Assembly (NCBI GenBank): GCA_963753345.1
Contig: CAVWBU010000023.1
Coordinates: forward strand, 1 to 64,000
Source: an uncultured Fibrobacterota bacterium
GTDB taxonomy: Bacteria; Fibrobacterota; Chitinivibrionia; Chitinivibrionales; FEN-1185
Reading direction: 5' to 3'
Length of the DNA stretch: 64,000 nt
Positions 8,486 through 63,587 of this stretch are shown here, piece after piece. The translations under genes were made by a program, and so were the position numbers. Under the pieces are notes generated by a model. That model had not been told where the DNA came from. It saw nothing but the letters and a program-made list of their open reading frames with translations, and searched no databases. How positions within the stretch are numbered: position 1 is the first letter of the stretch; each line of letters opens with the position of its first letter.

Positions 8486-9262
8486 TTCTCGGAAAGAAAG
8501 TGGCCGTGGTCCTTCCCGCCTACAACGCGGAAAAGACCCTGCGCAGCACCTACGACGAAATCCCCAGGGACATTGTTGACGAAGTGATACTCGTGGACGA
8601 CGCAAGCAGGGACCACACCGTGGCCGTGGCAAAGGCCATCGGCATACGGCATGTGTTGCAGCACGAAAAGAACCGCGGCTACGGCGCGAACCAGAAGACC
8701 TGCTACGCAAAGGCGCTTGAGATCGGCGCGGACATCGTGGTGATGCTCCACCCGGACTACCAGTACACGCCGAGGCTCATTCCCGCAATGGTCGAGCATT
8801 ATCGCGGGCGGCCTGTATCCGGTCGTGCTCGGCTCGCGCATTCTGGGCAACGGCGCGCGCAGCGGCGGCATGCCGTTTTACAAATACACAGCCAACCGTT
8901 TCCTCACGCTTGCGCAAAACATCCTTATGGGCCAGAAGCTCTCCGAATACCACACCGGCTACCGCGCGTTCTCGCGCGAGGTGCTGGAATCGGTCAACTG
9001 GAAGGACAATTCCGACGATTTCGTATTTGACAACCAGATGCTCGCGCAGATCTGCTTTGCCGGGTTCCCGATCGCGGAAGTGACGTGCCCCACAAAGTAT
9101 TTCAGGGAAGCGTCGTCGATAAATTTTGTGAGGAGCGTGAAGTACGGGTTGGGAGTGCTGAGCGTGGCGGTGGGATACAGGATGGAGAAGTGGGGGTTGG
9201 GGAAACGGGGGATGTTTAACCCCCAAGGGCCCGGAAGCACAAACCAGGTCAAATCCCGCTGA
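8482..9262 (+). CDS. GT2 (DPM1-like) glycosyltransferase, frameshift at ~8794
   Basis: VVLPAYN, VDDAS and HPDYQY in one frame continue as VLGSR...EYHTGYRAF...FVFDNQML in another. Confidence 0.88.
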
Positions 9263-10466
9263 CCGGTATTGCCCGAGAAGACCGGTCAATAGGAACGGTA
9301 TTTTCAACAAGACAGACAACCGCCCCTGCGCCGCGTTTTTGTGAGAATCTGTCGATAAGAGGAAAACTCTGCACCCACTCCTTCCTGACTGTTGCGTTTC
9401 TTTTGATTTCCACAGGATAAAGCTTGTTGTCCTGCTCAATAAGAAGGTCGATTTCCCTTCCATCCCTGTCTCGGAAGAAATAGAGTGACGGCCGGCGGGC
9501 GCAAAAAAGATGACTTTTCAGGATCTCGATCACCACAAACGTCTCGAAAATTGCACCGGACATGGCGCCCTCGCGGAGCGTTGCCGGTGAAGACCATCCT
9601 GTCAGATATGAACAAAGGCCTGTATCGACGAAATACAGCTTGGGTGTTTTTACCAGACGTTTTGTAATATTGCTGTGAAACGGCGGAAGCAGAAATACCT
9701 GAAAGCTGGCGACGAGCATCGACATCCACCGTTTTGCCGTCGCCATGTTTATGTCCACGTCCCGAGCCAGATCGGCGATATTGAGAAGTTGCCCTGTGCG
9801 CGCCGCGCATGCCTTGATAAACCTCGAAAACTGTTCAAGGTCGCCGACCTGCGCAAGGTCTCGGATGTCGCGGTGCAGATAGGTTTGCAGATAAGAACCG
9901 TAGAAAACAGACCAGTCGGTGCCGGGGTTTGCCGAAAGCGCGGGAAATGATCCGCGCCATATTTCACCGAAAATCGATGTGGGAGTATGGAGCGCCTTTC
10001 TTGCGGTTGGGCGAATGTCAAGCGACGGAATAAACGGCGCTTCCTTGCCGGCCAGACCGGATTTCTCCTTGAGCGACAGACCGAGCAGATCGATCACCGC
10101 CACCCGGCCCGCCAGTGTTTCGGAAACGCCTTTCATCATCTGGAACTGCTGCGAACCGGTGAGCCAATAGGCACCGGGCGCATGATCACGATCAATGCGC
10201 ATTTTGATAACGGGGAGCAGTTGAGGGGCGTATTGTATTTCATCGATCATCAGTGGCGGCGGAAACTGCTCAAGGAATAGATTCGGGTCTTCGATGGCGA
10301 GCGATCTGATCGACATGTCGTCGAGCGTAACTGAAGCGCGGCCTTTTTCCTTGATCTTCTGCAGCATGGTCGTCTTCCCCACCTGACGCGGGCCGGTCAG
10401 CAGAAGAGCGGGAAATTGCTTTGATAACGCAAGAAAACTGGTTTCAAGCGAACGGCGCATGTACAT
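9249..10466 (-). CDS. AAA_14/DUF4143 ATP-binding protein
   Basis: Walker A GPRQVGKT, IDEIQY, TGSQ, KTPKLYFVDTGL and EIDL...PVEIK motifs. Confidence 0.92.
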   Translation of the reverse strand: MYMRRSLETSFLALSKQFPALLLTGPRQVGKTTMLQKIKEKGRASVTLDDMSIRSLAIEDPNLFLEQFPPPLMIDEIQYAPQLLPVIKMRIDRDHAPGAYWLTGSQQFQMMKGVSETLAGRVAVIDLLGLSLKEKSGLAGKEAPFIPSLDIRPTARKALHTPTSIFGEIWRGSFPALSANPGTDWSVFYGSYLQTYLHRDIRDLAQVGDLEQFSRFIKACAARTGQLLNIADLARDVDINMATAKRWMSMLVASFQVFLLPPFHSNITKRLVKTPKLYFVDTGLCSYLTGWSSPATLREGAMSGAIFETFVVIEILKSHLFCARRPSLYFFRDRDGREIDLLIEQDNKLYPVEIKRNATVRKEWVQSFPLIDRFSQKRGAGAVVCLVENTVPIDRSSRAIPVSGI

Positions 10467-10471
10467 AATAG

Positions 10472-10521
10472 GCCTCGGCTGGTTTATTACTATTATAATA
10501 AACTAGCCGAGGCAGAGTCAA
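10472..10521 (-). promoter_or_regulatory. sigma70 promoter of the ATPase, overlapped by an 18-bp inverted repeat
   Basis: TTGACT-N18-TATAAT on the minus strand; arms 10472-10489 and 10496-10513 with one mismatch. Confidence 0.7.
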
Positions 10522-10584
10522 GACAAATTTTCTGACTGACAAAAACTGCGTCGTATAAAATGTATTCGGTATACCATTTTCATA

Positions 10585-10620
10585 TTGACAGTAAATATCA
10601 TAAATTGTATATTATCTGTC
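10585..10620 (+). promoter_or_regulatory. sigma70 promoter of the AbiE operon with an overlapping inverted repeat
   Basis: TTGACA (10585)-N17-TATATT (10608); GACAGTAAATAT...ATATTATCTGTC. Confidence 0.72.
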
Positions 10621-10623
10621 GTT

Positions 10624-11232
10624 ATGAATAATCGCGTTGACGACTACCGGCTCATTGAAAAATGGTCTTCCCCCATGGGCGGAGTCTTCTCCCTCAGCGA
10701 TTTGAAAAACCTCTTTAATGAAAAAACCCCGCTGCTTCTGCACCGGAGGGTCCGTGCTCTAGTTATTCTCGGCGTGCTCGCACGCTTCAAACGGGAATTC
10801 TACGTAACGGAAAAATTCAACCTCGAAACACTGTCGCAAAGGCTGTATCCGGATTCGTATATAAGCCTGGGCACTGTTCTGGCGCGCCATCTGTTAATTG
10901 GTTCCATCCCCGCGAAAACCATATACGCTGTAAAAACAGGCCGTAACCGTATTTTCAGTTCCACCGTGGGCAACCTGGTGTATTGCGGCATCGCGCCGCA
11001 TCTGATGTTTGCCTTTGCATATGAAAACGGCATACGGTATGCAACGGCAGAAAAGGCATTTCTTGACACATTGTATTTTTATCAGAAGGGATTCCGCTTT
11101 TCCTTTAATATTTTCGAGGACATAGACGTTTCCCCGTTGGATATGAAGAAGATTCGGGGCCTGCTCAAACGGTACAGGAACCCGAAATTCGTCACCTTTG
11201 TAAAAGGAGTACTCTCTGGCAGACATTCATGA
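10624..11232 (+). CDS. AbiEi-like type IV antitoxin / transcriptional regulator
   Basis: SYISLGTVLARHLLI and ATAEKAFLDTLY motifs; directly upstream of AbiEii. Confidence 0.8.
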   Translation: MNNRVDDYRLIEKWSSPMGGVFSLSDLKNLFNEKTPLLLHRRVRALVILGVLARFKREFYVTEKFNLETLSQRLYPDSYISLGTVLARHLLIGSIPAKTIYAVKTGRNRIFSSTVGNLVYCGIAPHLMFAFAYENGIRYATAEKAFLDTLYFYQKGFRFSFNIFEDIDVSPLDMKKIRGLLKRYRNPKFVTFVKGVLSGRHS

Positions 11233-11245
11233 CACGGAAGGCCTG

Positions 11246-11947
11246 ATGGTCTGGATAATCAACCAGCTTGCCGACAGGTTCGGCAGCCACGCCGTATTAA
11301 AAGGCGGGATGGAGCTGCGGATCGTGGACTGCCCGCGCTTCACCAACGATCTTGATTATGTCTTTATACCGTTTGTCTCGAAGAAAGAAATAAAGGACCG
11401 GATCCTTGAAGCTCTCAGGGAAAACCCGGAGCTTGACGTTTCATGTTCCGTGAACTCGAAATGCATACGATACCTTGTCGCACAGGGAAACATCAAAGTC
11501 CAGGTTGAGGTCAATGTCGCCCTTGAATGCGAAAGCCGGGAAATGAGCACTTCGTCGCTTGCGAAATCGAAAAACCAGCAGGGCAGAATGATCCGCGTCA
11601 TGGATTTTGATTCGGCGCTTGCGCACAAACTCGCGGCGTGGAATGAAAGGGGCCTTGTAAGGGACCTGTATGACGCGTATTATCTGTGCGTGATTTTGCG
11701 GGCAAAACCGGATGTGAAGGTCCTCAAACAACGGCTGGCCCATGTGGAAAGAAGAAAGAAGGGGGCAAAGCCGATGGTGATGAGCATTGATGATTTTATT
11801 GACAACCTCGAATCGGCCGCGCGCGATTTGACGGAGGATACGGTGAAAAACGAGCTCAGGGATTACATGCAGCAGGAGGAACTGGCGGGGCTGGACAGGA
11901 AAATTATCGGGGGAATAAGCAAAGTCGTTGAGTATTTGCGAACGTAG
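11246..11947 (+). CDS. AbiEii/AbiGii nucleotidyltransferase toxin (possible CTG start at 11216 after the AAAGGAG RBS)
   Basis: LKGG, RFTNDLDY and HKLAA...RDLYD motifs. Confidence 0.85.
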   Translation: MVWIINQLADRFGSHAVLKGGMELRIVDCPRFTNDLDYVFIPFVSKKEIKDRILEALRENPELDVSCSVNSKCIRYLVAQGNIKVQVEVNVALECESREMSTSSLAKSKNQQGRMIRVMDFDSALAHKLAAWNERGLVRDLYDAYYLCVILRAKPDVKVLKQRLAHVERRKKGAKPMVMSIDDFIDNLESAARDLTEDTVKNELRDYMQQEELAGLDRKIIGGISKVVEYLRT

Positions 11948-12024
11948 AGGGGCTGCACTCGGGAGGAAGCATCGTCGATAAATTTTGGGGGAAGGTTTAG
12001 ATTAGCAACAAGAATATTATTTGT

Positions 12025-12207
12025 GGGGGAGGTTTACCCCGTCGGGTAATTCCAAGGGTCGTCCCCCTCGCTCCGGCCCGACGCTCATATTTTCAGAGTA
12101 CATCTCATTTCGCGCCGGTCCTCCGCTACCCCCTCCTGGGTGGCCCCCAAGTGGAGACAGTTGCAAGAATCAAGCACCCGTGTGGGGGCACCCACGAAGA
12201 GCGGCTG
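12025..12207 (+). repeat. Solo B module (copy 2)
   Basis: GGGGGAGG...CCCCCTCGCTCCGGCCC...GGTCCTCCGCTACCCCCTCCTGGGT...GGGGGCACCCA. Confidence 0.9.
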
Positions 12208-12230
12208 GAAAAGAAAATAGCCTTCTCATT

Positions 12231-13913: not shown

Positions 13914-13946
13914 AATTGCTCATTTCAATAATTTCAAATTCAAGAC

Positions 13947-14364
13947 TTGGGCGCCCCGCCGCATCGCGGCGGCGGCCCTCCTTTCAGGCTCGGCCTAACG
14001 GCCTCGTTGCCGCCTGCCACAAGGGCTCTTCGAGCCGTGGTCAGGCGGCAATGCGCTCCAGCGCACCTTCCAGTCCGGCCTGGCGCGCGGCAGAGGAAAT
14101 CTATTCAGTCAAGTACCTTCTTGCGCCAGCCGGAATAATTAGACAATCCGTCAAGACTTCTCATTGTCCTGCTGTCAACTGTCAACCGTCAACTTTTCAA
14201 CTCTCTTTCTCGGTGCCCCCTCAGCCGAGGTTTTTTTCTCGCACATCAACCCTCTAGGGGGCTACGCACGAGGGGGTGTGGGTGCGGATCGCCGGCGCCT
14301 CGCATGATATTTAGCTTTGTCAAGAAGGCGCCGGAAGCCGCACCCCAGGGGGAAACTTCCCCCT
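13947..14364 (-). repeat. Bipartite element copy 3: B (14200-14364), heptamer spacer, A (13947-14133)
   Basis: Reverse complement aligns with copies at 20198 and 39568. Confidence 0.9.
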
Positions 14365-20197: not shown

Positions 20198-20635
20198 GGG
20201 GGAAGTGTCCCCCTAGGGTGCGGCTTCCGGCGCCTCCTTGACAAAGCTGAACAAATGCGCAGGCGCCGGCGATCCGCACCCATACCCCCTCCTGGGTAGC
20301 CCCCTAGAGGAAGCAGTTGCAAGAATCAAGCACCCGCGTGGGGGCACCCGAGGAGAGTAGTTGAAAAGTTGAATAGTTGAATATTAAAGAAGTATTTATG
20401 ATATTGATCTTGAGAATTCCGATTGGCGCAAGAAAAAGCAATTGACTGAATAGAATTCTGTTGCCGCGCGCTAGGTGGACCGGAGTGGTCCCGCCATAGC
20501 GGGATTGCCGCTGACCACGGCCCGCAGGGCCCTCGTGGCAGGCGGCAACGAGGCTGAAGGCCGAGCCCGGAGGGAGACCGGCCCCTTTTATAGAGGCGCA
20601 ATATCTTTCGCCTCTACAAAAGGGGAAACGCCCAA
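20198..20635 (+). repeat. Bipartite element copy 4: B (20198-20363), octamer spacer, A (20419-20635)
   Basis: Full B-spacer-A layout. Confidence 0.92.
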
Positions 20636-21826: not shown

Positions 21827-21850
21827 CCTTCAAATCGCTTGCCAAGTAAT

Positions 21851-21882
21851 AAAGGCGCCCGAATGCGGGCGCCATTTCTTTT
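21851..21882. terminator. Probable bidirectional intrinsic terminator
   Basis: GGCGCCCG-aatg-CGGGCGCC with A-rich and T-rich flanks, between convergent genes. Confidence 0.65.
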
Positions 21883-21904
21883 CATCAAACAATCTCCATG
21901 CATA

Positions 21905-24736: not shown

Positions 24737-24903
24737 TGAGAACCCCCCTTTTATGGTTAATCGGATAAATAATGATCGAAAACTTCCGCACTGCATGCCC
24801 GTTGGCACCAGTCAGATCTGGTCTATAATATAAGGTATTTGGGGCGATTTGGCAAATAAACGCGATGTGGTGGTAAGAGTAATATTTGGAGTAAGAAAAA
24901 GAA

Positions 24904-25050
24904 TTGGGCGCCCCGCCGCTTCGCGGCGGCGGCCCTCCTTCCGGTCTCGGCCTTCGGCCTCGGGCCGCCTCGGCCCTATGCCGCAGCAGCGGTCGGGTCC
25001 GGGCGGCACCGCGCTCCAGCGCGGCCTCCAGTCCTGCCTGGCGCGCGGCG
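24904..25050 (-). repeat. A module (copy 5), partner of B at 26519
   Basis: Nearly collinear with A at 59356. Confidence 0.9.
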
Positions 25051-25211
25051 AAACGACCAATGCCGCAATTGTCAAGGTCCTGTTTACAATCCGCAATATA
25101 CAATCAACAATCTACAAGAAGGAGTCTTGCCGGGCACAGATAAGGAATTCATCAGGCAGTTCCTTCTATCTATGAGCCGCGGAAATAGTGAACCATTGAA
25201 ACCGCATTCTA

Positions 25212-25574
25212 TTATGGGGCCACATAAACATCGGAACACAGACATTGATTTTGGCCGCGAACGTAGTCAATCACGCTAATCTTAGTAACGTACTTGCCAG
25301 GCCCAACCGGATTGCCGTTCATGTCCTTCCCGTCCCAGATGTAGTACAATCCCGTTCCGTTCGAATCTTGAGAATAGGCAACGAGGCGCTTATTGAAATC
25401 GTAGATTTCTACAAAGCCGAAAATCTTGGTCGTATCCGACGGTTTCGTTTTTGGCATAGTCACCTTGGAGCAATCCAGTCCGTAGGTGCTTTGAAATTGC
25501 GTCGGCGAGTTGAAGCAGCCCAAAGCAAACACCAGATGACCGGCAAGGATAATAGGAAGAATATTTCTGACCAT
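25212..25574 (-). CDS. Small lipoprotein with FlgD-Ig-like domain
   Basis: Lipobox ALGC; VEIYD...WDGKDMNGNPVGPGKY. Confidence 0.7.
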   Translation of the reverse strand: MVRNILPIILAGHLVFALGCFNSPTQFQSTYGLDCSKVTMPKTKPSDTTKIFGFVEIYDFNKRLVAYSQDSNGTGLYYIWDGKDMNGNPVGPGKYVTKISVIDYVRGQNQCLCSDVYVAP

Positions 25575-25582
25575 ACTTCTCC

Positions 25583-26239
25583 TTAATAGAAAGTATACCG
25601 CAATGTCAATCTAATGGCGCTTGTGTTGTAAATTTGAGCGAATTGAACCTGTTTCCAATCGGTCTGACCTGAAACAGTGTCTTGGTATGCCACTTCGATC
25701 TTATCGTAATATCCAGGCTGCGAAAACTGATACTCCAGCACGGCAGACAAGTGCTTGATAAATTCAACCCCGGTTCCCAAAGAACAGCAGAAGCCAATGC
25801 CGGCAAATTGTTGGTCCATTGCGCCGCCAAAAGGATACCTCCACATGGCTACTCCTGCAGACCCGGATATAAATACTAATGGAGCAACCTTACGAACATA
25901 ATACGAAAGCTCAAGAGCGTCGGCATTGTTCAAAATCATGGTTGTATACGGATACATAACGTCGGACTTGTTCGCAAACGCAAACTCAAACCTATTGCCG
26001 AAATTATATCCAACTCTGAAATCAAGACAGAGAGCGGTATTTCCGCTGGTCTTACCGTATCCTTTGGCGGTGTCGATTTGCACGTAGGGAACTGTTATGT
26101 CTTCCGCTAACCCTGCACCGGCGGAGAGGATGAAACCCTTGAGGACGTCGTCGAAACCGAAAGCATTTACCGAGAAGAAGACCATCAAGAGCGTTGGAAG
26201 AACGGGGTTGGAAAAGTGTTTGAGGTTCTTATTAGTCAT
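25583..26239 (-). CDS. Putative outer-membrane beta-barrel protein
   Basis: Signal peptide, alternating beta pattern, C-terminal LTLRYTFY. Confidence 0.6.
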   Translation of the reverse strand: MTNKNLKHFSNPVLPTLLMVFFSVNAFGFDDVLKGFILSAGAGLAEDITVPYVQIDTAKGYGKTSGNTALCLDFRVGYNFGNRFEFAFANKSDVMYPYTTMILNNADALELSYYVRKVAPLVFISGSAGVAMWRYPFGGAMDQQFAGIGFCCSLGTGVEFIKHLSAVLEYQFSQPGYYDKIEVAYQDTVSGQTDWKQVQFAQIYNTSAIRLTLRYTFY

Positions 26240-26359
26240 TATGAGTCGTTCACTCGCGTCATCTCGTGGCAAGTCTTTTTCGTCGAGAGCGGGCGCGTAT
26301 AACTGACAAGATGCAATATAGGTGTCCCCACTTACCATTGGCAAATCTGTTACTTCAAA

Positions 26360-26389
26360 ATTGCTTCGTCGCAGACTTCTCGCAATGAC
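26360..26389. repeat. REP-like palindromic repeat (ATTGCTTCG...CGCAATGAC)
   Basis: Related to the reverse complement of 2594-2616 (TTGCGAG...CGAAGCAATCT). Confidence 0.55.
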
Positions 26390-26518
26390 ACGACATCCGG
26401 CCCATTCCACTTTGTATTTCTACTTCTTTGTCATTTTGTATTTCTTCAACAATCGCTCCTTGGTGCCCCCGCAAGAAGAAAAGTTACAAAGTGACAAAGA
26501 GAAGTAAGTGCATAGTAC

Positions 26519-26679
26519 CACTGCTCTCCATGGGTGCCCCCACGCCGGTGCTTGATTCTTGCAACAGCACTCTCAAGGGGTGCACCCAGGAGGGGGTAGC
26601 GGAGGACCGGCCGCGGCCATTCAGAATACTGTCTTGAAAAGTGTCGCGGCCGGGCCGGAGCGAGGGGGAAACCTCCCCC
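26519..26679 (-). repeat. B module (copy 6), with a partial duplicate end at ~26452-26470
   Basis: Reverse complement aligns with B at 2405 and 12025. Confidence 0.9.
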
Positions 26680-26716
26680 GCAAAAAGTCACATCTTGATA
26701 AACCATAATTACAATC

Positions 26717-28156
26717 TCAACCTCCCCCCTCATTCCTCGCAATGCAATCCTTCCAATATCCCTTTATCGCCTCCCACACTTCCCTGCCCGATCCCGACCG
26801 GCTCACCCACACGATGCACAAATCGTCCCGGTGCCGCTTCACCCAGCGCGTGGCGATTTCCTGCTCCGGAAAGTCGGTGGGGTTGGGCGGGAGCGTGCCG
26901 CCAAAGAAGAACGCCTCGAGCTCCGACTCCATGGCCGGGCCGTCGGCGTAGTCCGACGAAAACGGTCTCAGGTTTATCTTCTGGTTCTTGCGGAACCAGA
27001 ACGACATGCCCCTGCCCTGCTCGGCGTGCGGCAGGAGCACCACGCAGTCGTCAAGCGGCGCGAAATCGCCCTTGCGCTCCGCGATCTCGATCTGGCTGTT
27101 GAGAACCGGCGAATGCTTTCGGATGAGGCGGTATTCGTAAATCAGGCTTTCCAGCTCCGAGCCGCACCGGTGGGTCACGAGCTGGTGGGATTCGGAGCGT
27201 ATGCGGTCGAGCTTGTCCGGCGATTCGTCGGACGCGCGGAAATATCCCGAAAGCCTTCTCCTGAGGCTCGTCGCCTTGCCGATATACAAATAGGAATTAT
27301 TTTTTGCCTTGAACCCGTACACGCCCGGGCCGGCCGGCGCGTTCGCGATGTCCTCACGGGAAAACGCCTTTGACGAAAAGTCGAACGAGAACAGCTCCTT
27401 CTGCTCCGCTTCCTCAATATCGGAGAACCGCGTGATGCCTTTTCCGCGCATTTCATCGAGCAGCCTGGAGCAGCACAGGGCGAAGCGCTCGCCGTGCCGG
27501 TAGGCATAGCCCGCGGCGGCCGGCGAGCCAAACAGGGTTATATTGCATTGGTCAAGAGAGAGTGGCCGCGGCGCCGGCCGGCCGCAGCAGGAAAAAAGCG
27601 TCCCGGCGAGCACGGCGCTGTCGGGCGCGGGCAGGCCTGCTTCGGCGGCGAGCTGTGAAAACAGCGCGTGCTGCCGCCAGGATAGAAACAGCGGCGTTCT
27701 TGCTTCACAGGCGCGAATGAGAAGGCCGGCCTTTTCCTGGCCCGGCTCCTCGGAAAACGGCGTGTCGCCCACGCTTGCGAGAAGCTCCTGTTCCTCAAAG
27801 GGAAGCGACGCCGGGTCCGCAAGCCACCGCTCGAACAGCAGTTCGGGGGCTTCGCTCACCGTCCACACGGAAACGTGCGCCGCGCGCCGGGGGTCGTTGG
27901 GCAGCACGAGAAAGTAGACCGCAGCCCAGGGGATTTCCGAAAGCGGCTTCGATGCATCGGGCGACGCGGCCGTTTCTGAAACGCGCCAGAGATTGTCTTC
28001 GCCCAACGAAAAGCGTCCATCCTTTGAAAGGATTCCCCGCATTGCGACATGCGCGAGGTTTTCGTCGGGGTTCTTGAACTTGAGGAACTCTTGCGCCAGT
28101 ACGGGCGACGGAGACGGCCCGTGCTGCCGCAGGTATGTCAGTATCTCATCGTGCAT
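26717..28156 (-). CDS. UvrC/Cho-like GIY-YIG nuclease with a degenerate N-terminal (DnaQ-like?) region
   Basis: PAGPGVYGF...YLYIGKATSLRRRLSGYF...SELESLIYEYRLIRKHSPVLN. Confidence 0.8.
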   Translation of the reverse strand: MHDEILTYLRQHGPSPSPVLAQEFLKFKNPDENLAHVAMRGILSKDGRFSLGEDNLWRVSETAASPDASKPLSEIPWAAVYFLVLPNDPRRAAHVSVWTVSEAPELLFERWLADPASLPFEEQELLASVGDTPFSEEPGQEKAGLLIRACEARTPLFLSWRQHALFSQLAAEAGLPAPDSAVLAGTLFSCCGRPAPRPLSLDQCNITLFGSPAAAGYAYRHGERFALCCSRLLDEMRGKGITRFSDIEEAEQKELFSFDFSSKAFSREDIANAPAGPGVYGFKAKNNSYLYIGKATSLRRRLSGYFRASDESPDKLDRIRSESHQLVTHRCGSELESLIYEYRLIRKHSPVLNSQIEIAERKGDFAPLDDCVVLLPHAEQGRGMSFWFRKNQKINLRPFSSDYADGPAMESELEAFFFGGTLPPNPTDFPEQEIATRWVKRHRDDLCIVWVSRSGSGREVWEAIKGYWKDCIARNEGGG

Positions 28157-38302: not shown

Positions 38303-38650
38303 ATGAAATACATCGTAGCAATCATCCAGCCGTCGCGGCTCGAGGCCGTGAAGGAGGCCTTGAGCAAGTTGGAAGTGTTCCGCCTCACCGTCACCGACGT
38401 GGAGGGCATCGGCCGCCAGAAGGGACATACCGAGGTATACCGCGGACACGAGTACAAAATAAGCTTTATCTCCAAAGTCAAACTTGAGATCGCCGTGGAC
38501 GACAAGCATGTCGAGCCCATTGTGGAGGCGATCGCATCCGCTGCCCGCACGGGCAAGGAAGGACAGATCGGCGACGGCAAGATATTTGTCCTCCCGCTCG
38601 ATGACGTGATGCGGATAAGGACCCGGGAACGGGGCGCGGAAGCGTTGTAG
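38303..38650 (+). CDS. glnK: P-II nitrogen regulatory protein (GlnK by position)
   Basis: GRQKGHTEVYRGHEY and IGDGKIFV motifs; follows amtB. Confidence 0.9.
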   Translation: MKYIVAIIQPSRLEAVKEALSKLEVFRLTVTDVEGIGRQKGHTEVYRGHEYKISFISKVKLEIAVDDKHVEPIVEAIASAARTGKEGQIGDGKIFVLPLDDVMRIRTRERGAEAL

Positions 38651-38651
38651 G

Positions 38652-38686
38652 AAGAAGTTCAAAGTTGACAGTTGACGGTTGACAGT
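38652..38686 (+). repeat. Heptamer tandem repeat
   Basis: gaagttcaaagttgacagttgacggttgacag. Confidence 0.75.
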
Positions 38687-38740
38687 AAACGAATAAATGC
38701 AACCCTGATCTTGGTTAACTACAATGACAAAGGAAACATC

Positions 38741-42844: not shown

Positions 42845-44137
42845 TTACAAAGAATCGGTGACTTCTTCCGAACGTTCTATGCCCTCCTCCACCGCAATGG
42901 TGATTTCCCTTTCCGGCGCGGGCATGCTGTTTCCTGCCTGCCGGATGCCCCCTGAAAAAATGAAGGCGCCCAGAATGCACAGCGTGCCTCCCGCGAGAAA
43001 GGCATTCGGCGCGCCGATGGCCCCGGCAAGCACGCCCGCAAATAAATTGCCAAAGGGAGCCATCCCCAAAAAGGCCATTGCATAAAATGCCATCACGCGG
43101 CCCCTTTTCCTGTCGTCCGCCAACACCTGAAGCAGCGTGTTGCTGGAGGCTATCTGGACCATCATCCCGCATCCGACAACAAGCAGCGCCAGCATGGAAA
43201 GCCAGAAACTTTTCGAAAACGAAACCGCGATGAGCCCGACCCCGAACAGCCCTGCCGCAAAAGGTATCAATTTCCAGACGTCATAACTGTTTTTCCTTGA
43301 CGCGAGGTACATCGCGCCGATCAACGCGCCCATTCCGGTGGCGCCAAAAAGGAAGCCGAGCGTATGAGGCCCCCCTCCGAGGACTGCCTTTGCAAACACG
43401 GGCATCAGCACCTGATACGACATTCCCAGGAGGCTCACCAGCGCCAAGAGCAGTATGGTGGACCGCATGGGGACCGATTTGTAAATATAGGCGAATCCTT
43501 CCGAGAAATCATGGATGATGCGCGGGTTTGCGGGCTCCCTTTTCCTCGGCGCGATGTTCATGGCAAGCAGGGCCACGATTATCATTGCATAGCTTGCGGC
43601 GTTGACGAAAAAGCAGACCCCTTCGCCCGCCGACGCGATGAGAATGCCCGTAATCGAAGGTCCCACCAGACGCGCGCCGTTCACCATGGACGAATTAAGG
43701 GCGATCGCGTTGCCGAGGTCCTCCTTTTTTTCGATCATCTCGACGACAAATGATTGACGGGCGGTAACATCGAAGGCGTTGATTATCCCCAGGCAGGCAT
43801 TGAGGACAATGATCCACGGCACCGTGATTGCGCCGGTCACCACGAGGACAGCGAGGACAGCGGCCTGGATCATGGCAAGCGCCTGGGTAACGAGAAGAAT
43901 GTTCCTCTTGTTCCACCGGTCGGCCAGTACTCCGCCGAGCGGTGAAAGAAGAAAGGAAGGTATCTGACTCACGAATCCGACAATGCCCAGCATGACCGCC
44001 GAATTGGTGAGCCGGTACACCAGCCAGGCGGTTGCCACGCGCTGCATCCAGGTGCCGATCAGCGACGTGCCCTGCCCGACAAAGAACAGGCGATAATTCC
44101 TGTATTGTAAAGCTCTGAAGGTTGACTTGAGGGACAT
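42845..44137 (-). CDS. MFS transporter (MFS_3/DUF894 type)
   Basis: RNYRLFFVGQ..SLIGTWMQ, GGVLADRW and RGRVM motifs. Confidence 0.92.
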   Translation of the reverse strand: MSLKSTFRALQYRNYRLFFVGQGTSLIGTWMQRVATAWLVYRLTNSAVMLGIVGFVSQIPSFLLSPLGGVLADRWNKRNILLVTQALAMIQAAVLAVLVVTGAITVPWIIVLNACLGIINAFDVTARQSFVVEMIEKKEDLGNAIALNSSMVNGARLVGPSITGILIASAGEGVCFFVNAASYAMIIVALLAMNIAPRKREPANPRIIHDFSEGFAYIYKSVPMRSTILLLALVSLLGMSYQVLMPVFAKAVLGGGPHTLGFLFGATGMGALIGAMYLASRKNSYDVWKLIPFAAGLFGVGLIAVSFSKSFWLSMLALLVVGCGMMVQIASSNTLLQVLADDRKRGRVMAFYAMAFLGMAPFGNLFAGVLAGAIGAPNAFLAGGTLCILGAFIFSGGIRQAGNSMPAPEREITIAVEEGIERSEEVTDSL

Positions 44138-46313: not shown

Positions 46314-49300
46314 TGTGTCCTAAAGAAACCAAGATCATTGTTTCTTCACTTCTCGTCGTAATCATCGGCCTTCTCTTCTTTTGTGAAAGAAACAATCCTT
46401 ACGACCCGAACTCCAAATCGTTTGTTCCCGGGAAAAAGCCCCATGTCGCTTTCGCAAACAAGACCATGTCCGCTTATCTTCTTGACACAATTTCTATCCC
46501 GGTTGTCTGGTCCGACACTGCCGTCGGCGGGGTAAAGGGGGCCATCAAGAAATTTTACATCGACTGGCACGGCGACACGCTCTTTAACGACAGCGTCGCC
46601 GGGACCGCGGCCGACACCCTGGTGCTCAGAAAAGCATTCCCGGTGGAAACCGTAACGGTGCGGATCAGGGCGCTCGATTACGACGGCAATTACAGCGATG
46701 CCGACAGCATGAAGCTGTCCGTGCTTTCGAGCAGGCCAAGAATAGTGATCTCCGGCGGTTCCCGAACCGTCCGTAAAGCGGCCGTATGCACGCTGTCGGT
46801 TTCGGCAACCGACACGGGCGGCAAGATACAATCCTTTCTCTGGGCAAAAAACGGCGCGGATTTCAACGACACCACCTTTGCTGGATCATTTCAGGTTTCG
46901 TACAGCGACACTGGCGCGAAGATCGTTCTTGTCAAGGCCCGCGACAACAAGGGCGTCGAGTCCGGCGTTGACACGTTTCATATTACTGTGTTCGACAAAC
47001 GCGGCGCGGTGTTGTATGACGGAAATGGAAATACCGGCGGCATTGTTCCGACCGACACCAATATCTACGTTGCCGGACAACCGGTAATTGTGCTCGGCAA
47101 TACGGGGAATCTCGAAAAATCTGGATATGTTTTCTCAGGGTGGAACACCCTTTCCACGGGCAGCGGCGCAAATTATTCCCCCGGCGCCACGTTTTCGATG
47201 GATACCGTAAGTGCGATCCTGTATGCACAATGGACAGCAAACCCGACGTTTACTGTTGTCTATAATAGTAATGGCAGTACTGGCGGTACCGTTCCTGCCG
47301 ACACCGTGCACTATTCACTGGGTCAAAGCGTCACGGTGCTCGCGAATACAGGCTCTCTTGACAAGTCAGGAAATGCCTTTGTCGGCTGGAACACGGAAGC
47401 AAACGGCACCGGCATCGGCTATGCGGCGGGCGTGTCCTTTTTCATGGGATCCGCCAATGTAACGCTGTACGCGCAATGGACCGCCGACCCGACCTACACG
47501 GTGACGTATGACGGCAACGGCAACTCAGGCGGCACTGCTCCCGTGGACAACAACAACTATCTGTCCGGCGCGGCCGTGAAAGTCCTCGGCAATGCCAACG
47601 GTCTTGTCAAAACGGGAAACACCTTCATCGGATGGAACACCAAGCCCGACGGCAGCGGGACTGCCTATGCATCGGAGGTCTCGTTTACCATGGGCTCCGC
47701 GAGCGTGACCTTATTCGCGCAATGGACCGCGCTCCCGACGTACACGGTCACCTATAACGGTAACCTCAGCACGGGCGGGACCGCGCCGACAGACGCCAAC
47801 AGCTATATGCAGGGCCAGACCGTAACGGCGCGCGGCGCCGGCACGCTGGTCAAAACCGGCTCCACCTTTGCAGGCTGGAACACGAAGATCGACGGCACAG
47901 GGATCGGCTATGCGGCCGGGGCTACGTTTGCCATGGGAACCGCCAACATTACCCTGTATGCGCAGTGGACGGTTATTCCGACATACACCGTCACCTACAA
48001 CGGCAACAACAATACCTCCGGGACAGTGCCTGCGGACAATAATCATTATACGTTCGGACAGCCGGTGACGGTGCTTGCCAACACCGGGAATCTCGCGAAA
48101 ACAGGCGCAACTTTCGTGGGGTGGAACACGCAGGCCAACGGCAGCGGCACCGGCTACGCGGCTGCGGTGTCCTTTGTCATGGGTTCAGCCAATGTTACCT
48201 TGTATGCGCAATGGACCGCAAATCCAACCTACACCGTGACCTATCGGGGGAATACCAACTCGGGCGGCACCGTTCCTGTGGACTGTAAACAACTATCTGT
48301 CCGGCGCGACCGTTACCGTGCTCGGCAATACCGGCGGGCTTGTCAAAGCAGGAAATACCTTTGTCGGATGGAACACGCAGGCCGACGGCAGCGGCACGAC
48401 CTATGCATCACAGGCCACGTTTGTCATGGGCTCAGCCAACATAACATTGTATGCGCGGTGGACCGCGCTCCCGACGTACACCGTCACCTATGACGGCAAC
48501 GTCAACACGGGCGGTACCGCGCCGGTGGACGCCAACAGCTACCTGCAGGGGCAGACCGTGACAACGCGCGGGGCAGGCACGCTGGTCAAAACAGGTTATA
48601 CCTTTACAGGCTGGAACACGAAGGCCAACGGAAGCGGGACCGCCTATGCGGCAGGAGTGACGTTTGCCATGGGCGCAGCCAACGATACGCTGCATGCCCA
48701 GTGGGCGCTTGTCCCCACCTATGGCGTCGCCTATAACGGCAACACCAATACCACAGGGGCCGCACCCGCGGACAATAACCGTTATACGGTCGGACAATCT
48801 GTCATCGCGCTCGGCAACACCGGGAACCTTGCAAAACCGGGCTACACATTCGTCGGCTGGAACACGCAGGCCAACGACAGCGGCATCGGTTACGCGACCG
48901 GAGTGTCCTTTTTCATGGGTTCCTCCAATGTGACCTTATACGCTCAATGGACCCAGCTCCCAACCTACACGGTCACCTACGACGGCAACGGCAGCACGGG
49001 CGGGAGCGTCCCTCTGGATGGCAATAACTATCTGTCGGGCGCGACGGTGACGGTGCCCGACAATCCCGGCGGACTTGTCAAAACAGGAAACACCTTTATC
49101 GGCTGGAACACAAAGACGGACGGCAGCGGTACGACCTATACATCACTTGCCACCTTTACAATGGGTTCCGCCAACATAACGCTGTACGCGCGGTGGACCT
49201 CCAACCCGACCTACAAAGTGACCTACGATGGCAACGGCAGCTTGGGCGGGACAGCACCGGCCGACGCCAACAGCTACCTGCAGGGCCAGACCGTGACAAC

Positions 49301-52069
49301 GCTGAGCGCCGGGTCACTGGCCAGACCAAGATTACTATACTTTACAGGGTGGAACACTCAGGCAAACGGCGAAGGACTTGGCTACGGGGTCGGCGTCACG
49401 TTTGCCATGCCCTCCAATAACGTGACGCTGTTCGCTCAGTGGACCGGCATTCCCACGTATACGGTCACCTATAACGGCAACGGTAATAATGCCGGCACAG
49501 CACCTACAGACAACAATCGCTATGCAGCCGGACAGCCGGTAATTGCACTCGGCTACGGCAGTCTTGTGGATTCGGGCTACACATTCGTGGGATGGAACAC
49601 GAAGTCCAACGGCACCGGTATCGTGTACGCGGCCGGAGTCTCATTTGTCATGGACACCGCCAATGTGACGCTCTACGCGCAATGGACCGCGCTCCCGACC
49701 TACACCGTCACCTATGACGGCAACGGAGGTACAGGAACTCCCCCTTCAGACGGAAACCACTATCTGTCCGGCGCGATTGTGACCGTGCTCGGCAACACCG
49801 GCGGGCTTGTCAAAACAGGAAATACCTTTGTTGGCTGGAACACGAAGACTGACGGCACCGGCTTGAGCTACACATCACCGGGCACGTTTACAATGGGTTC
49901 CGCCAACGTAACGCTGTATGCACGGTGGACATCCAACCCAACGTACAGAGTGACCTACGAGGGGAACGGCAGTTCGGGCGGGACCACGCCGGCGGACTCC
50001 AACAGGTATTTGCAGGGCCAGACCGTGGTTGTGCTCGCCAACACCGGCGTGCTTGTGAAAACCGGCTTTACTTTTGCGGGCTGGGACACCAATGCCCTCG
50101 GCAGCGGGACTGTCTATGCCCCGGGAGCCTCGTTTATCATGGGAACTGCCAATGTGACGTTGCACGCGCAGTGGGCGGCGATTCCGAAATACACGGTCAC
50201 CTATAACAGGACCACCGCCAACAGCGGTATCGGGACTGTTCCTGTGGATACAAATCATTACATGTTCGGACAATTGGTGACCGTGCTCGGCGACACCGGC
50301 GGGCTTGTGAAAACAGGTTCTACCTTCGTCGGGTGGAACACACAGGCAGGTGGCGGCGGCATCGGGTACGCGGCGGGAGTGTCATTTGTCATGGGTTCTG
50401 CCAACGATACACTCTACGCGCAATGGAGTGCCCTCCCGACCTACACCGTCACTTATAACGGTAATACGAACACAAGCGGAAACGCGCCGGTGGACCCCAA
50501 CAATTATCTGTCCGGTACGAGCGTGACAGTGCTCGGCAGCAACACACTTGTCAAGACCGGATACACGTTCGTTGGCTGGGATACCATTGCCAACGGCGGC
50601 GGGAATGTCATAGGAACCTCGTTTACCATGAAATCCATCAACGTGACATTGTACGCGCAATGGACCGCAAACCAGACGTATTCCGTCACTTACTTCGGCA
50701 ACGACAGCACGGGCGGCACTGTTCCGGTTGACAAGAACAACTATCTATCCGGCGCGACGTGACCGTGCTCGCCAACACAGGCGGTCTTGTCAGAACAGGA
50801 AATACGTTCATTGGCTGGAACACGCAAGCCAGACGGCAGCGGGACATGCCTATGCCCCAGGAGACACGTTTACCATAACGTCCGCCAAGCTGCCGTATGC
50901 GCAGTGGACCGCGCTTCCCACCTGTACGGTCACCTATTCGGAAACGGCAACACGAGCGCGAATGTGCCGTCAGATGCAAGTCACTATTTTCGGAACAACT
51001 GTGCCGATTCCGGGTAATGCGGAGGCCCTGCACAGAACCGGCGATAAATTGCGGATGGGATGCCATGTGCACGTCGATGGTGGTCGACAGTCTTAGGATC
51101 CGTCGTTTACTATGGATCAGCCAACGTGACACACAAATCACACAATAGCGGCGACCTTTGCACTCACGTACATGCACCATGATGGCAACGACTGCAGCAG
51201 GCGGCACTATTCCGCGAGGAGGGAACACGATTAATCCGGTTCAACAGATGACAACGTATACCATTACCGCCGCTCCGCATTATCATATTGTGGCCGTTGT
51301 TGTAACTGGAACACGCAGAAAGATGGCAAGGGGACACTCCTACTCGTCCCGGAGACATTTTAGAAATGGGTACCAGTAATGTAACGTTATACGCCATCTG
51401 CGTCTTCACCATCACGCAACGGCCTGTTTAACCCGGGTCAATATCCCCGTCCGGAGCAGTGACTCGATACCGGGAGCGGATCAAACTTTTCTATGACACC
51501 CGGTCCCAATTATCATGTCGATAGTGTTTATGTCAATGGATCACCAGTAACTCCAGCCTTGACGTACACATTCACGGTGTTTCGGGCAACTCCACCATTT
51601 CCGCAACGTTTGTGATCAACACGTACACGATTTCATTTGATCCAAGCGGCGCAACCGGATCGATGGCTGATCAAACCATAACAAGCGGATCATCGGCAAG
51701 TCTTGCGGCGAACGTATTTACCAAAGCAGGATGGACTTTTGCGGGATGGGCAACCACTGCCGGTGGAGCAGTAGCTTATTCCGAAATGGCGCAAGCTACA
51801 CCATGGGCACATCAAATGTGACGCTGTATGCAGTATGGACAGCCACCGTTACCTTTGATGACCAGGGCGCTACCGTACTGGAAAGTCCAGCAGCGATAAG
51901 TGTTACATCGCCGGCAACAACAGTCGGTACGTTACCAACCTCGCCCTCAAAAGACCTCTATAATTTTAATGGTTGGTATACGGAGGTGAATGGCGGAGGA
52001 TCGTCATTTACCGCAAGTACCACGGTTACTGGTAGTATTACTGTGTATGCCTATTGGACACTGCAATGA
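46314..52069 (+). CDS. Giant surface (lipo)protein with at least 16 Listeria-Bacteroides (InlB B/Flg_new) repeats; frameshift at ~48285, heavily disrupted 50760-51790
   Basis: Repeated TYTVTY.GN...K.G.TF.GWNT...MG.ANVTLYAQW across ORFs 46301, 48318, 51612 and 51731. Confidence 0.85.
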
Positions 52070-54888: not shown

Positions 54889-55329
54889 TTGGGCGTTCCC
54901 CTCCCCCTCGACAAAGCTCGGGGTCGCGTCGGTCTCCTTCCGGGCTCGGCTATTCGCCTCGTTGCCGGACCGCCCCGAGTCGCCTTCGGCGAGGAGTCGG
55001 CCGGCAATTCGCTTTAGCTCACCCTCCAGTCCACCTAACGCGCGGCAGAGGGATTCTATTCAGTCAAGAGTTTCTTCTCTCGCCAATCGGTATCCCAAGC
55101 AAATCAATCAAGACTTCTTCTTTGATTTTTCAACTCTTCAATCTTTCAACCATTCAACGTTTCAACTTTTTCTTTGCCACTGCTCTCCTTGGGTGCCCCC
55201 CAACCGAAGCAGCTTTCTTGCAAGTAAACTTACTTTGGGGCCACCCAGGAGGGGGTAGCAGAGGACGCCGAAGGCGGCCGGAGCGAGGGGGACGACCCTT
55301 GGAAGTACCCGACGGGGTAAACCTCCCCC
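54889..55329 (-). repeat. Bipartite element copy 8: B (55178-55329), octamer spacer, A (54889-55090)
   Basis: Reverse complement aligns with copies 1, 2 and 7. Confidence 0.92.
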
Positions 55330-63227: not shown

Positions 63228-63446
63228 CCAGGTGAAATCCGGCGGAAGGATTTGACCGTACGGGTGGACAGTCGGGTGTGTGACAACTATCTGTTAATCC
63301 CTGTGCCACGATCATCCTTGATCGTGCAGCGTCCGTAAAGGGTCCAGTCGAGGACGACGGTGGCACATAATTTGTTATTTTAGGTTTTGAAAGGCACCGG
63401 TGTGACATAGTGATAAAGTCACAAAGTAGCAGTAAGTGCATGGTAC

Positions 63447-63574
63447 CACTGCTCTCCATGGGTGCCCCCGCAGCAGAGCATGGTTTCGTAACTACTCTCT
63501 CTAGGGGTGCACCCAGGAGGAGGTAGCGAAAGACCGGCCGCAGGCCGGGCTGAAGCGAGGGGGAGACTTCCCCC
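63447..63574 (-). repeat. Solo B module (copy 10)
   Basis: Shares the extended tail AGTAAGTGCAT(A/G)GTACCACTG with copy 6. Confidence 0.9.
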
Positions 63575-63587
63575 TCCAAGTGAATTT

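Follow-up and report, generated by a model that had tools for sequence, protein, structure and literature searches.

The BOX (boxA-boxB-boxC), RUP and SPRITE elements of Streptococcus pneumoniae are described, in the part of the report on which we draw, as modular, structured and species-restricted repeats and are judged there to be parasitic (Croucher et al. 2011, PMC3049150). REP sequences are presented, in the portion of the source used here, as hot spots for the insertion of mobile DNA and as contributors to genome plasticity (Tobes and Pareja 2006, PMC1525189). Here we describe a comparable intergenic repeat with two modules, A and B, in a bacterium of the Fibrobacterota. The window, which is the whole stretch of DNA that was analysed, comprises 64,000 nucleotides (nt) of contig CAVWBU010000023.1, and coordinates refer to it unless another contig is named. 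One copy of the repeat, c5, lies between a gene encoding a GIY-YIG protein and a gene encoding a glycoside hydrolase of family 2 (GH2), and its modules enclose two genes, called the cargo below. Our preferred reading, to which we give a probability of roughly 0.55, is that a repeat unit lay between the GIY-YIG and GH2 genes and that a foreign operon came to lie in its spacer.

Similar to BOX, RUP and SPRITE, as these appear in the cited part of that report, A and B are modular interspersed intergenic repeats with extensive predicted structure, found in one species and its closest relative. They are likened by description, and a relation in sequence is not expected. A and B differ from BOX in being much larger (about 145-180 nt with about six helices in A, about 150-205 nt in B) and very GC-rich, and in having a tandem array and a conserved box between the modules. 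Large BOX elements themselves form open reading frames (ORFs), according to the same part of the report (PMC3049150), whereas here whole foreign genes with their own predicted promoter lie between the modules. REP and BIME elements share with A and B that they are high-copy extragenic repeats which form hairpins and are arranged in mosaics. The REP cases, in the portion used, concern insertion sequences with their own transposases that enter palindromes of 20-40 nt. The insert in c5, in contrast, has no transposase, and its modules are long multi-helix units. Nunvar et al. in 2010 and Bertels and Rainey in 2011 are reportedly further names to be mentioned alongside REP and BIME elements.

The minimal mobile elements of Neisseria are small gene cassettes without mobility genes, which vary in presence between conserved flanking genes and change places through homologous recombination in these flanks; Kong et al. 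in 2013 and Bentley et al. in 2007 are said to be the works to name for them. The cargo of c5 is likewise a small cassette without mobility genes between conserved flanking genes. However, in Neisseria conserved genes form the flanks and natural transformation precedes the exchange, whereas the immediate flanks in c5 are repeat modules. Integrons add genes at a defined non-coding platform and consist of intI, attI and promoterless cassettes bounded by attC. Unlike an integron, c5 lacks attI- or attC-type sites as well as a cassette array, the window yielded no Pfam integrase family, and the cargo has its own predicted promoter. A literature search, which was narrow, found no relevant work on intergenic repeats in Fibrobacterota, so that the novelty of the family is weakly founded.

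Genome contigs were searched with the GIY-YIG protein as anchor, which yielded 38 loci and, together with the window, 39 sources. The closest relative, L004, is a 6.5-kb contig of a metagenome-assembled genome of the Chitinivibrionales that is collinear with window positions 27202-19443. Its genes are 88-95% identical to those of the window in nucleotide sequence, the GH2 proteins are 92% identical in amino acids (aa), and fourfold-degenerate sites are 78% identical. The GIY-YIG stop codon of L004 (471-473) is followed by B (516-715), an array, A (814-982), the GH2 promoter and the GH2 start codon (ATG at 1163), without the cargo. The spacer between the GIY-YIG and GH2 genes measures 1977 nt in the window but 689 nt in L004. 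L002, which is less closely related (GIY-YIG 66% and GH2 81% aa identity), has the two genes about 215 nt apart, with no A, B or cargo between them. L002 offers a second bare site, the hyp1601-LptFG spacer, with about 300 nt versus 770 nt in the window, where this spacer holds unit c1; both bare sites are too diverged to define the borders of the unit. No homologues of the cargo proteins were found in the 38 GIY-YIG-anchored loci. Absent from a conserved locus in L004 and L002 and deviant in composition, the cargo has the properties of a horizontally acquired genomic islet.

The slot from GIY-YIG/MurJ to GT2 holds GH2 in the window, L004 and L002, and other genes in L001 and L003. An amidohydrolase-like gene, an unknown gene and a gene for a 1624-aa RCC1/Ig-repeat protein occupy it in L001 (11487-20517), and hemerythrin and ThuA genes in L003 (11503-13974). 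The gene content of this stretch is thus variable among the relatives.

The interval between the modules (25051-26518) has a GC content of 0.456, compared with 0.576 for the whole window. With 0.457 and 0.471, the two cargo genes have the lowest and third-lowest GC content of 38 ORFs (mean 0.576, standard deviation 0.049), which is 2.1-2.4 standard deviations below the ORF mean. Their GC content at third codon positions (GC3) is 0.52 and 0.57 versus 0.69 +/- 0.10 for the ORFs.

The product of cargo gene 1 is predicted to be a small outer-membrane beta-barrel of the OmpW/OprG/OmpA-TM fold class. It has a signal peptide and ends in ...RYTFY, with a C-terminal aromatic residue, and its AlphaFold (AF2) model is all-beta with a predicted local distance difference test (pLDDT) value of 90.8. 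The best fold matches found by Foldseek are OprG (E 1e-6, template modelling (TM) score 0.52), NspA, OmpW and the OmpA barrel, with TM scores of about 0.5. The query itself matches the Pfam family OMP_b-brl weakly (E 0.004), and 17 out of 32 members of its own family match. This family is small: 118 remote relatives were found at E<=1e-3 among 1.84 billion representatives, and a word-based search retrieved one 66%-identical cluster.

Lipoproteins carry a lipobox, and in cargo gene 2 it was read as ...ALGC. The Pfam domain FlgD_ig scores 18.9 bits, below its cut-off of 27. The AF2 model, built from three sequences, is an Ig-like beta-sandwich of moderate confidence (pLDDT 68.9), whose best fold matches (E 4e-3 to 7e-3, none at E<=1e-3) include FlgD and PorU/PorZ domains. 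The assignment as FlgD-Ig-like, which is based on these scores and the model, is therefore weak. One 48%-identical relative of gene 2 was found.

The sequence AAGGAG stands 6 nt before the ATG of gene 2, and this ATG lies 8 nt past the stop codon of gene 1. This motif, the short intergenic gap and the single promoter suggest that both genes form one predicted operon, which is co-oriented with A and points into it. The 3' region of the operon has no significant structure (fold z -0.6), and no terminator was called there. Near-identical but frameshifted versions of two proteins, the lipoprotein and the GIY-YIG protein, each come from an ENA contig of 9376 nt and hint that a further assembly from this species may carry the cargo beside GIY-YIG as well. 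Searches of plasmid and phage collections with the 1.9-kb locus as query (blastn in distant mode) gave no match in either.

The modules were located with blastn, nhmmer and covariance models (R1 for A and R2 for B). Nine B and seven A copies are present in the window, all of them between ORFs. The B-core pattern has 20 matches versus 1.5 +/- 1.25 expected, a count that is partly inflated because the palindromic helix matches on both strands, and the pattern for the 5' part of A has seven matches versus 0.18 expected, namely six true ones and one off-target match at 43660. Seven B-A pairs of the window and two of L004 are readable. Each of the nine A copies has a B upstream on the same strand, and the order B, array, A is fixed throughout. 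Counted from where the B model ends to where A starts, the gap at c5 is 1452 nt versus 60-355 nt in the other eight pairs (355 nt in c1, 90 in c3, 83 in c4, 152 in c6, 114 in c7, 84 in c8, 98 and 60 in L004), and c5 is the only one of the nine pairs with genes between its modules. B stands without A in two of the 11 copies, c2 (12017-12223) and c9 (63430-63582), and both of these face a convergent gene.

Relative to the neighbouring genes, units are co-directional (c1, c3, c5), divergent (c4, c7), convergent (c6) or antisense to both (c8). All four arrangements thus occur, and the pattern is therefore that of an inserted repeat and not of a gene-specific control region. Among the 39 sources (684 kb), only the window and L004 contained A or B; nhmmer and the covariance models detected neither module in the other 37 loci (613 kb) at E<0.1, the best other matches having E 0.19-0.26. 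Copy number, occurrence in both orientations, fixed module order, hairpins and narrow range place the family among the interspersed mosaic intergenic repeats of the BIME/BOX kind. Arrays of GTTGACR/GTTGAAAA units also occur alone, away from B and A, at 62-127 and 38626-38691, just upstream of ORFs.

Module B has a size of about 150-205 nt and comprises three hairpins, P1, P2 and P3. In c5, P1 pairs GGGGGA with UCCCCC (26679-26664), and P3 is a long helix (CUCCUGGGUGC.CCCC/GGGGGCACCC..GGAG). P1 and P3 are conserved according to RNAalifold; P2 varies in length and sequence and folds as a hairpin in all ten anchorable copies, one of the 11 being without anchor. Module A is GC-rich, 140-184 nt in size, and has about six helices, with a closing helix around the hairpins P2-P6. 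Its interior consists of a hairpin, a long irregular hairpin, two short hairpins and a terminal GC hairpin, the tip of which varies by up to 30 nt. Hairpin tips vary by insertions. In the nine A copies, 81% of the pair cells are standard, compared with 37-46% when the partners are slid. Double-sided changes affect 34 cells versus 15.2 +/- 3.3 in shuffles, and none of 500 shuffles reached 34; the shuffle control overstates the significance and the slid control is fairer, because the A copies are related paralogues. Both modules are structured and show base changes that compensate each other.

As to the strand that folds, there is a weak lean towards the B-to-A strand, because G-U exceed A-C counts in both modules (19 versus 10 in A, 11 versus 0 cells in P1 and P3 of B). 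The summed free energies lean in opposite directions, with -768 forward versus -732 reverse for A and -843 versus -880 for B. The A copy of c5 folds with -91.2 kcal/mol (z -2.5) and is followed by a T-rich tail, AAUUCUUUUUCUU, at 24893-24905. The box before A is missing at c5 but is found in the other eight of the nine copies; six of these have it intact, whereas c8 and L004b have a weaker form.

No Rfam family matched at gathering thresholds in the whole window, and permissive searches of three units returned noise only. The twister-sister ribozyme (RF02681) was considered for the 3' half of A, where it scores 23.3 bits in c3 (13938-14006, minus strand) and 15.7 bits in c5 (24895-24970, minus strand) with a gathering threshold of 34. 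It was rejected, as the matches are sub-threshold, one helix of the model is deleted and the alignment splits the conserved GGCC hairpin of A.

The features of the locus are compiled in Table 1.

Table 1. Features between the GIY-YIG and GH2 genes of the window and the two flanking genes, listed in B-to-A direction.
Feature	Position	Strand	Basis
GIY-YIG gene, upstream conserved gene, 479 aa	26717..28156	-	Pfam GIY-YIG E 1.4e-6; 95% nt identity to L004 1-477
B module, copy c5	26502..26687	-	nhmmer 1.9e-49; covariance model R2 182 bits
51-nt 3' extension of the c5-type B, common to solo copy c9	26473..26523	-	alignment with c9; blastn 63409-63446
Partial second B end (3' strand of P3), closest to B copy c8	26454..26472	-	local alignment
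Array of 7-8 nt units, directly after the partial B end	26407..26453	-	inverted-repeat search
32-nt palindrome TTGCGAG...GAAGCAA	26356..26387	-	local alignment coordinates
Candidate sigma-70-like cargo promoter, TTGCCA-N18-TATATT	26315..26344	-	promoter scan, 10/12 positions
Cargo gene 1, predicted small outer-membrane beta-barrel, 218 aa	25583..26239	-	Pfam, AlphaFold, Foldseek
Cargo gene 2, predicted lipoprotein, 120 aa	25212..25574	-	reading, Pfam, AF2
7-nt array with five units (TTGNNNA), immediately before A	25082..25117	-	direct-repeat search
Box region upstream of A c5; CTTGAC kept, TGAATAGAWTT box missing	25050..25076	-	alignment of the sequences before 9 A copies
A module, copy c5, 81% GC, multi-helix	24905..25049	-	covariance model R1 122.7 bits; pair counts
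Putative promoter of GH2, TTGCCA-N17-TATATT, downstream of A	24827..24855	-	promoter scan
GH2 (glycoside hydrolase family 2), downstream conserved gene, 944 aa	21905..24739	-	Pfam, 6 GH2-related domains

B begins about 30 nt past the stop codon of the GIY-YIG gene, on the same strand. Its 3' extension holds 8-nt array units in inverted orientation. The partial B end that follows is identical to the 3' end of B copy c8 at 27 out of 31 aligned positions, and an AT-rich inverted repeat (26408-26447/26473-26500) surrounds it, with a fold of -36.2 kcal/mol (z -3.6). The 32-nt palindrome is probably part of the repeat rather than of the cargo, because a related one stands after B in copy c1, a comparison made by eye and unscored. 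The array just upstream of A is, by comparison of the spacers, the counterpart of the GTTGAAAA/GTTGACR arrays in other B-A spacers. The putative GH2 promoter is conserved in the alignment with L004 and recognisable in the sequence of L002. The cargo promoter and the GH2 promoter share the hexamers TTGCCA and TATATT and a preceding ATT, perhaps as a promoter style typical of this organism. An 11-nt imperfect direct repeat, CATTGCGAG[G/A]A, was seen by reading on the minus strand at the very end of the GIY-YIG gene (26736-26746) and at 26377-26387; the two copies are about 350 nt apart, bracket B, the partial B and the array, and possibly arose by chance. The GIY-YIG protein has 502 homologues, with names from Chitinivibrionales and Chitinispirillaceae, and some Chitinivibrionales records name it 'nucleotide excision repair endonuclease'.

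An earlier, sequence-only reading of this DNA had described much of this anatomy. It placed B at 26519-26679 and A at 24904-25050, in the usual order and strand but about 1.45 kb apart, which agrees with the measured 1452 nt and, within a few nucleotides at A and somewhat more at B, with the model borders (26502-26687 and 24905-25049). The gaps it gave for the other pairs, 55-125 nt and 350 nt in copy 1, correspond to the measured 60-152 and 355 nt once the module borders are allowed for. It called the interval AT-richer, and the GC content bears this out, as does the lower GC3 of both genes. Its candidate promoter was recovered by the promoter scan, and the tandem repeats, the partial second B end (which it put at about 26452-26470) and the palindrome were all located inside the interval. 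As for the two genes, its beta-barrel stands on the AF2 model and the OprG-like fold, whereas its FlgD-Ig lipoprotein fared less well, with the Pfam score remaining below the cut-off.

The copies of the repeat themselves appear to turn over. Similarity between the window and L004 falls just after the stop codon of the GIY-YIG gene and resumes 41 nt before the end of A. The unit of L004 at the c5 locus is most similar to other copies of the window: c7 with 98% over 56 nt, c2 with 85% over 136 nt and c3 with 84% over 289 nt, versus 79% over about 90 nt for c5. It belongs to another subtype, with a c2/c7-like B and a c3-like spacer and 5' part of A. The two A copies of L004 (814-982 and 5376-5559) are 89% identical to each other, versus 80% and 67% to their counterparts in the window (24905-25049 and 20463-20634), a pattern that we read as concerted evolution. 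Copy c5 is a mosaic, in which the partial B end and A are closest to c8 and the full B is closest to c9. Because copies at the same locus differ in subtype between the two genomes, these comparisons point to recombination between copies, by which copies would be overwritten and nested at fixed loci.

Two further small repeats were observed within or beside the units. The P1 loop of B in c2 (12036-12063), c7 (55291-55318) and L004a (within 516-715) contains a nested 28-nt mini-hairpin (CGACCCTTGGAAG.ACCCGA.GGGGT), and the same mini-hairpin is found inverted in both A copies of L004 (e.g. L004:912-939). It resembles a very small repeat with other repeats as its insertion sites. The second family is a REP-like doublet of about 118 nt with two hairpins, CCCCGCSACTTGGSGCGGGG, which lies right after the GH2 stop codon in L004 (3995-4112). 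It is absent at the same site of the window (21827-21904), a clean presence/absence polymorphism, and an 86%-identical copy lies inside the B-A spacer of c1 (2777-2896).

The events at c5 can be pictured as follows. The B-A pair is one copy of a composite intergenic repeat limited to a Chitinivibrionales-like lineage of the Fibrobacterota and made up of a three-hairpin B, an array of 7-8 nt units, a conserved box and a GC-rich multi-helix A with a hairpin and a T-rich tail at its end. Both the genome of the window and L004 have a copy between the GIY-YIG and GH2 genes, and in the lineage of the window a compositionally foreign two-gene envelope operon with its own predicted promoter would have entered the B-A spacer. 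The spacer may be dispensable DNA, in a region of variable gene content with flanks that recombine often with many paralogues, and the spacer of c1 also holds an insertion, the REP-like doublet, which in L004 occurs at a different site. We infer that the operon was gained and not lost, that horizontal transfer brought it in and recombination within the repeat or beside it fixed it, with no transposase acting on B and A, and that it may be transcribed. A probably now serves as the 3' end of the operon, because the operon runs in the same direction as A, no separate terminator was seen for it and the box of A in c5 is lost; B probably sits in the 3' untranslated region of the GIY-YIG gene.

Several points weigh against this picture. 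A preference of the insert for the spacer over other intergenic DNA is not supported, with genes in one of nine pairs only, and the comparison covers a small sample, 64 kb of the genome of the window and 6.5 kb of its closest relative. Gain and loss of the cargo each need two events, either the acquisition of B-A followed by that of the cargo, or the acquisition of B, cargo and A together followed by loss of the cargo in L004. At the junctions no microhomology stands out and no recognised site points to a route of recombination. Neutral sites are 22% diverged, so that part of the divergence between copies is plain drift; with only 78% identity at fourfold sites, the junctions of the event are eroded and much of the divergence of B could be drift as well. 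A sigma-70 promoter upstream of A was also considered and rejected, as its TTGAC and TAGAAT boxes are merely 3-4 nt apart, and A is not claimed as an independent gene because this upstream box is not a canonical sigma-70 promoter.

A loss would start from an ancestor with B, cargo and A, and a compact B-A copy would have overwritten the L004 locus by recombination within B and A. The different subtype of the L004 unit is what such overwriting would leave, recombination between copies is evident, and the number of events equals that of a gain. However, the outgroup L002 is without the cargo genes, the cargo retains a strong AT shift, as would be expected of a recent arrival rather than of a long residence, and the copy of the window is also rearranged (the nested partial B), so that the window side is not pristine either. 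We regard a loss as unlikely. That B and A landed separately beside pre-existing genes, as two independent solo insertions, is barely conceivable. B can indeed stand alone (c2, c9), but A never occurs without B (9/9), and L004 has both modules without the genes. The sequence-only reading had proposed that the two genes be sought in the same order in relatives lacking the modules, as a sign of solo insertions; in L002, which lacks the modules, the genes are absent too.

The same reading had suggested that B and A act as left and right ends, and this found no support. A mobile element bounded by B and A, with the compact pairs as non-autonomous forms, c5 as the cargo-bearing form and the enzyme encoded elsewhere, would explain the fixed order and strand in all nine pairs, the four orientations relative to neighbouring genes, which resemble those of inserted elements, the density in the window (nine B in 64 kb) together with the absence from 37 other loci, and the drop in similarity to L004 from the GIY-YIG stop codon to inside A. 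Yet none of the nine units has terminal inverted repeats, since the 5' end of B scores 7-9 against the reverse complement of the 3' end of A, versus 7.1-8.2 +/- 1.2-1.4 in shuffles, and none has target-site duplications (50-nt flanks score 4-8, within shuffles). Nor does the cargo interval itself show inverted repeats at its termini or direct repeats in its flanks. No Pfam transposase or recombinase family was found in the cargo genes or among the 46 ORFs of the window that were scanned, ten of which have no family at all. The last 41 nt of A (24946-24905) fall within a collinear 90% match to L004 that runs into GH2, and a 61-nt match across the end of A is 93% identical; the end of A is thus orthologous with L004, and its outer edge was not replaced along with the cargo. 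Units show no orientation bias (four plus, five minus). A transposon or insertion sequence with B and A as ends was rejected for want of inverted repeats, duplications and a recombinase in the cargo and because B is solo in two of 11 copies, and a miniature inverted-repeat transposable element because the nine units lack terminal inverted repeats and target duplications. A mobile element in the wider sense is quite improbable.

Insertion into the spacer, which the sequence-only reading gave as the other possibility, is supported by the empty B-A pair of L004, which it had proposed looking for in relatives, and by the bare site of L002; its idea of gene capture as a recurrent process rests on one pair in nine. 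The tabulation of B-A pairs that it recommended genome-wide was made for these nine. A dedicated integration site in the spacer, possibly the 7-8 nt arrays, with an unknown recombinase and an integron-like logic of gene capture, would fit the position of the cargo between two array segments (26407-26453 and 25082-25117) and the unrelated repeats inserted in the spacer of c1. But arrays also stand away from B-A pairs, the cargo brings its own predicted promoter, and no tRNA or tmRNA gene that could act as integration site was found. An integron was rejected on that promoter, on the missing Pfam integrase family in the window and on the lack of a repeated junction sequence. We consider a dedicated site very unlikely. 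Equally far-fetched is the boldest view, that B-array-A is a new RNA-structured self-propagating element and its spacer a recurrent landing pad for promoter-bearing operons, which would enter through an unknown recombinase or repeat-guided exchange; if it were true, the c5 locus would be the first caught example of a gene-capture platform.

Elsewhere in the window, positions 47084-50937 contain a tandem series of some 16 units, each about 246 nt (82 codons) long, which are 60-90% identical and apparently lie inside a very large coding region. A low-GC accessory block at 9249-11947 is directly followed by the solo B copy c2. It comprises genes for a DUF4143/AAA_14 ATPase (9249-10466, minus strand), an unknown ORF (10585-11232, GC 0.461) and an AbiEii toxin-type nucleotidyltransferase (11246-11947).

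On our preferred reading, the gain of a foreign operon in the spacer of a resident repeat, the event at c5 is an insertion of accessory genes that is ordinary in itself, though its setting is unusual; it is of a kind already known and was seen in one instance. The modules A and B, with their compensatory changes and no Rfam match, are more interesting objects than the insertion. The locus presents a three-state series at one site: bare in L002, repeat only in L004, and repeat with two foreign genes in the window. Dense, lineage-specific structured repeats thereby coincide with a change of gene content in the poorly studied Fibrobacterota of soil and peat. If more loaded pairs were to be found genome-wide, these repeats would be a candidate recombination platform.

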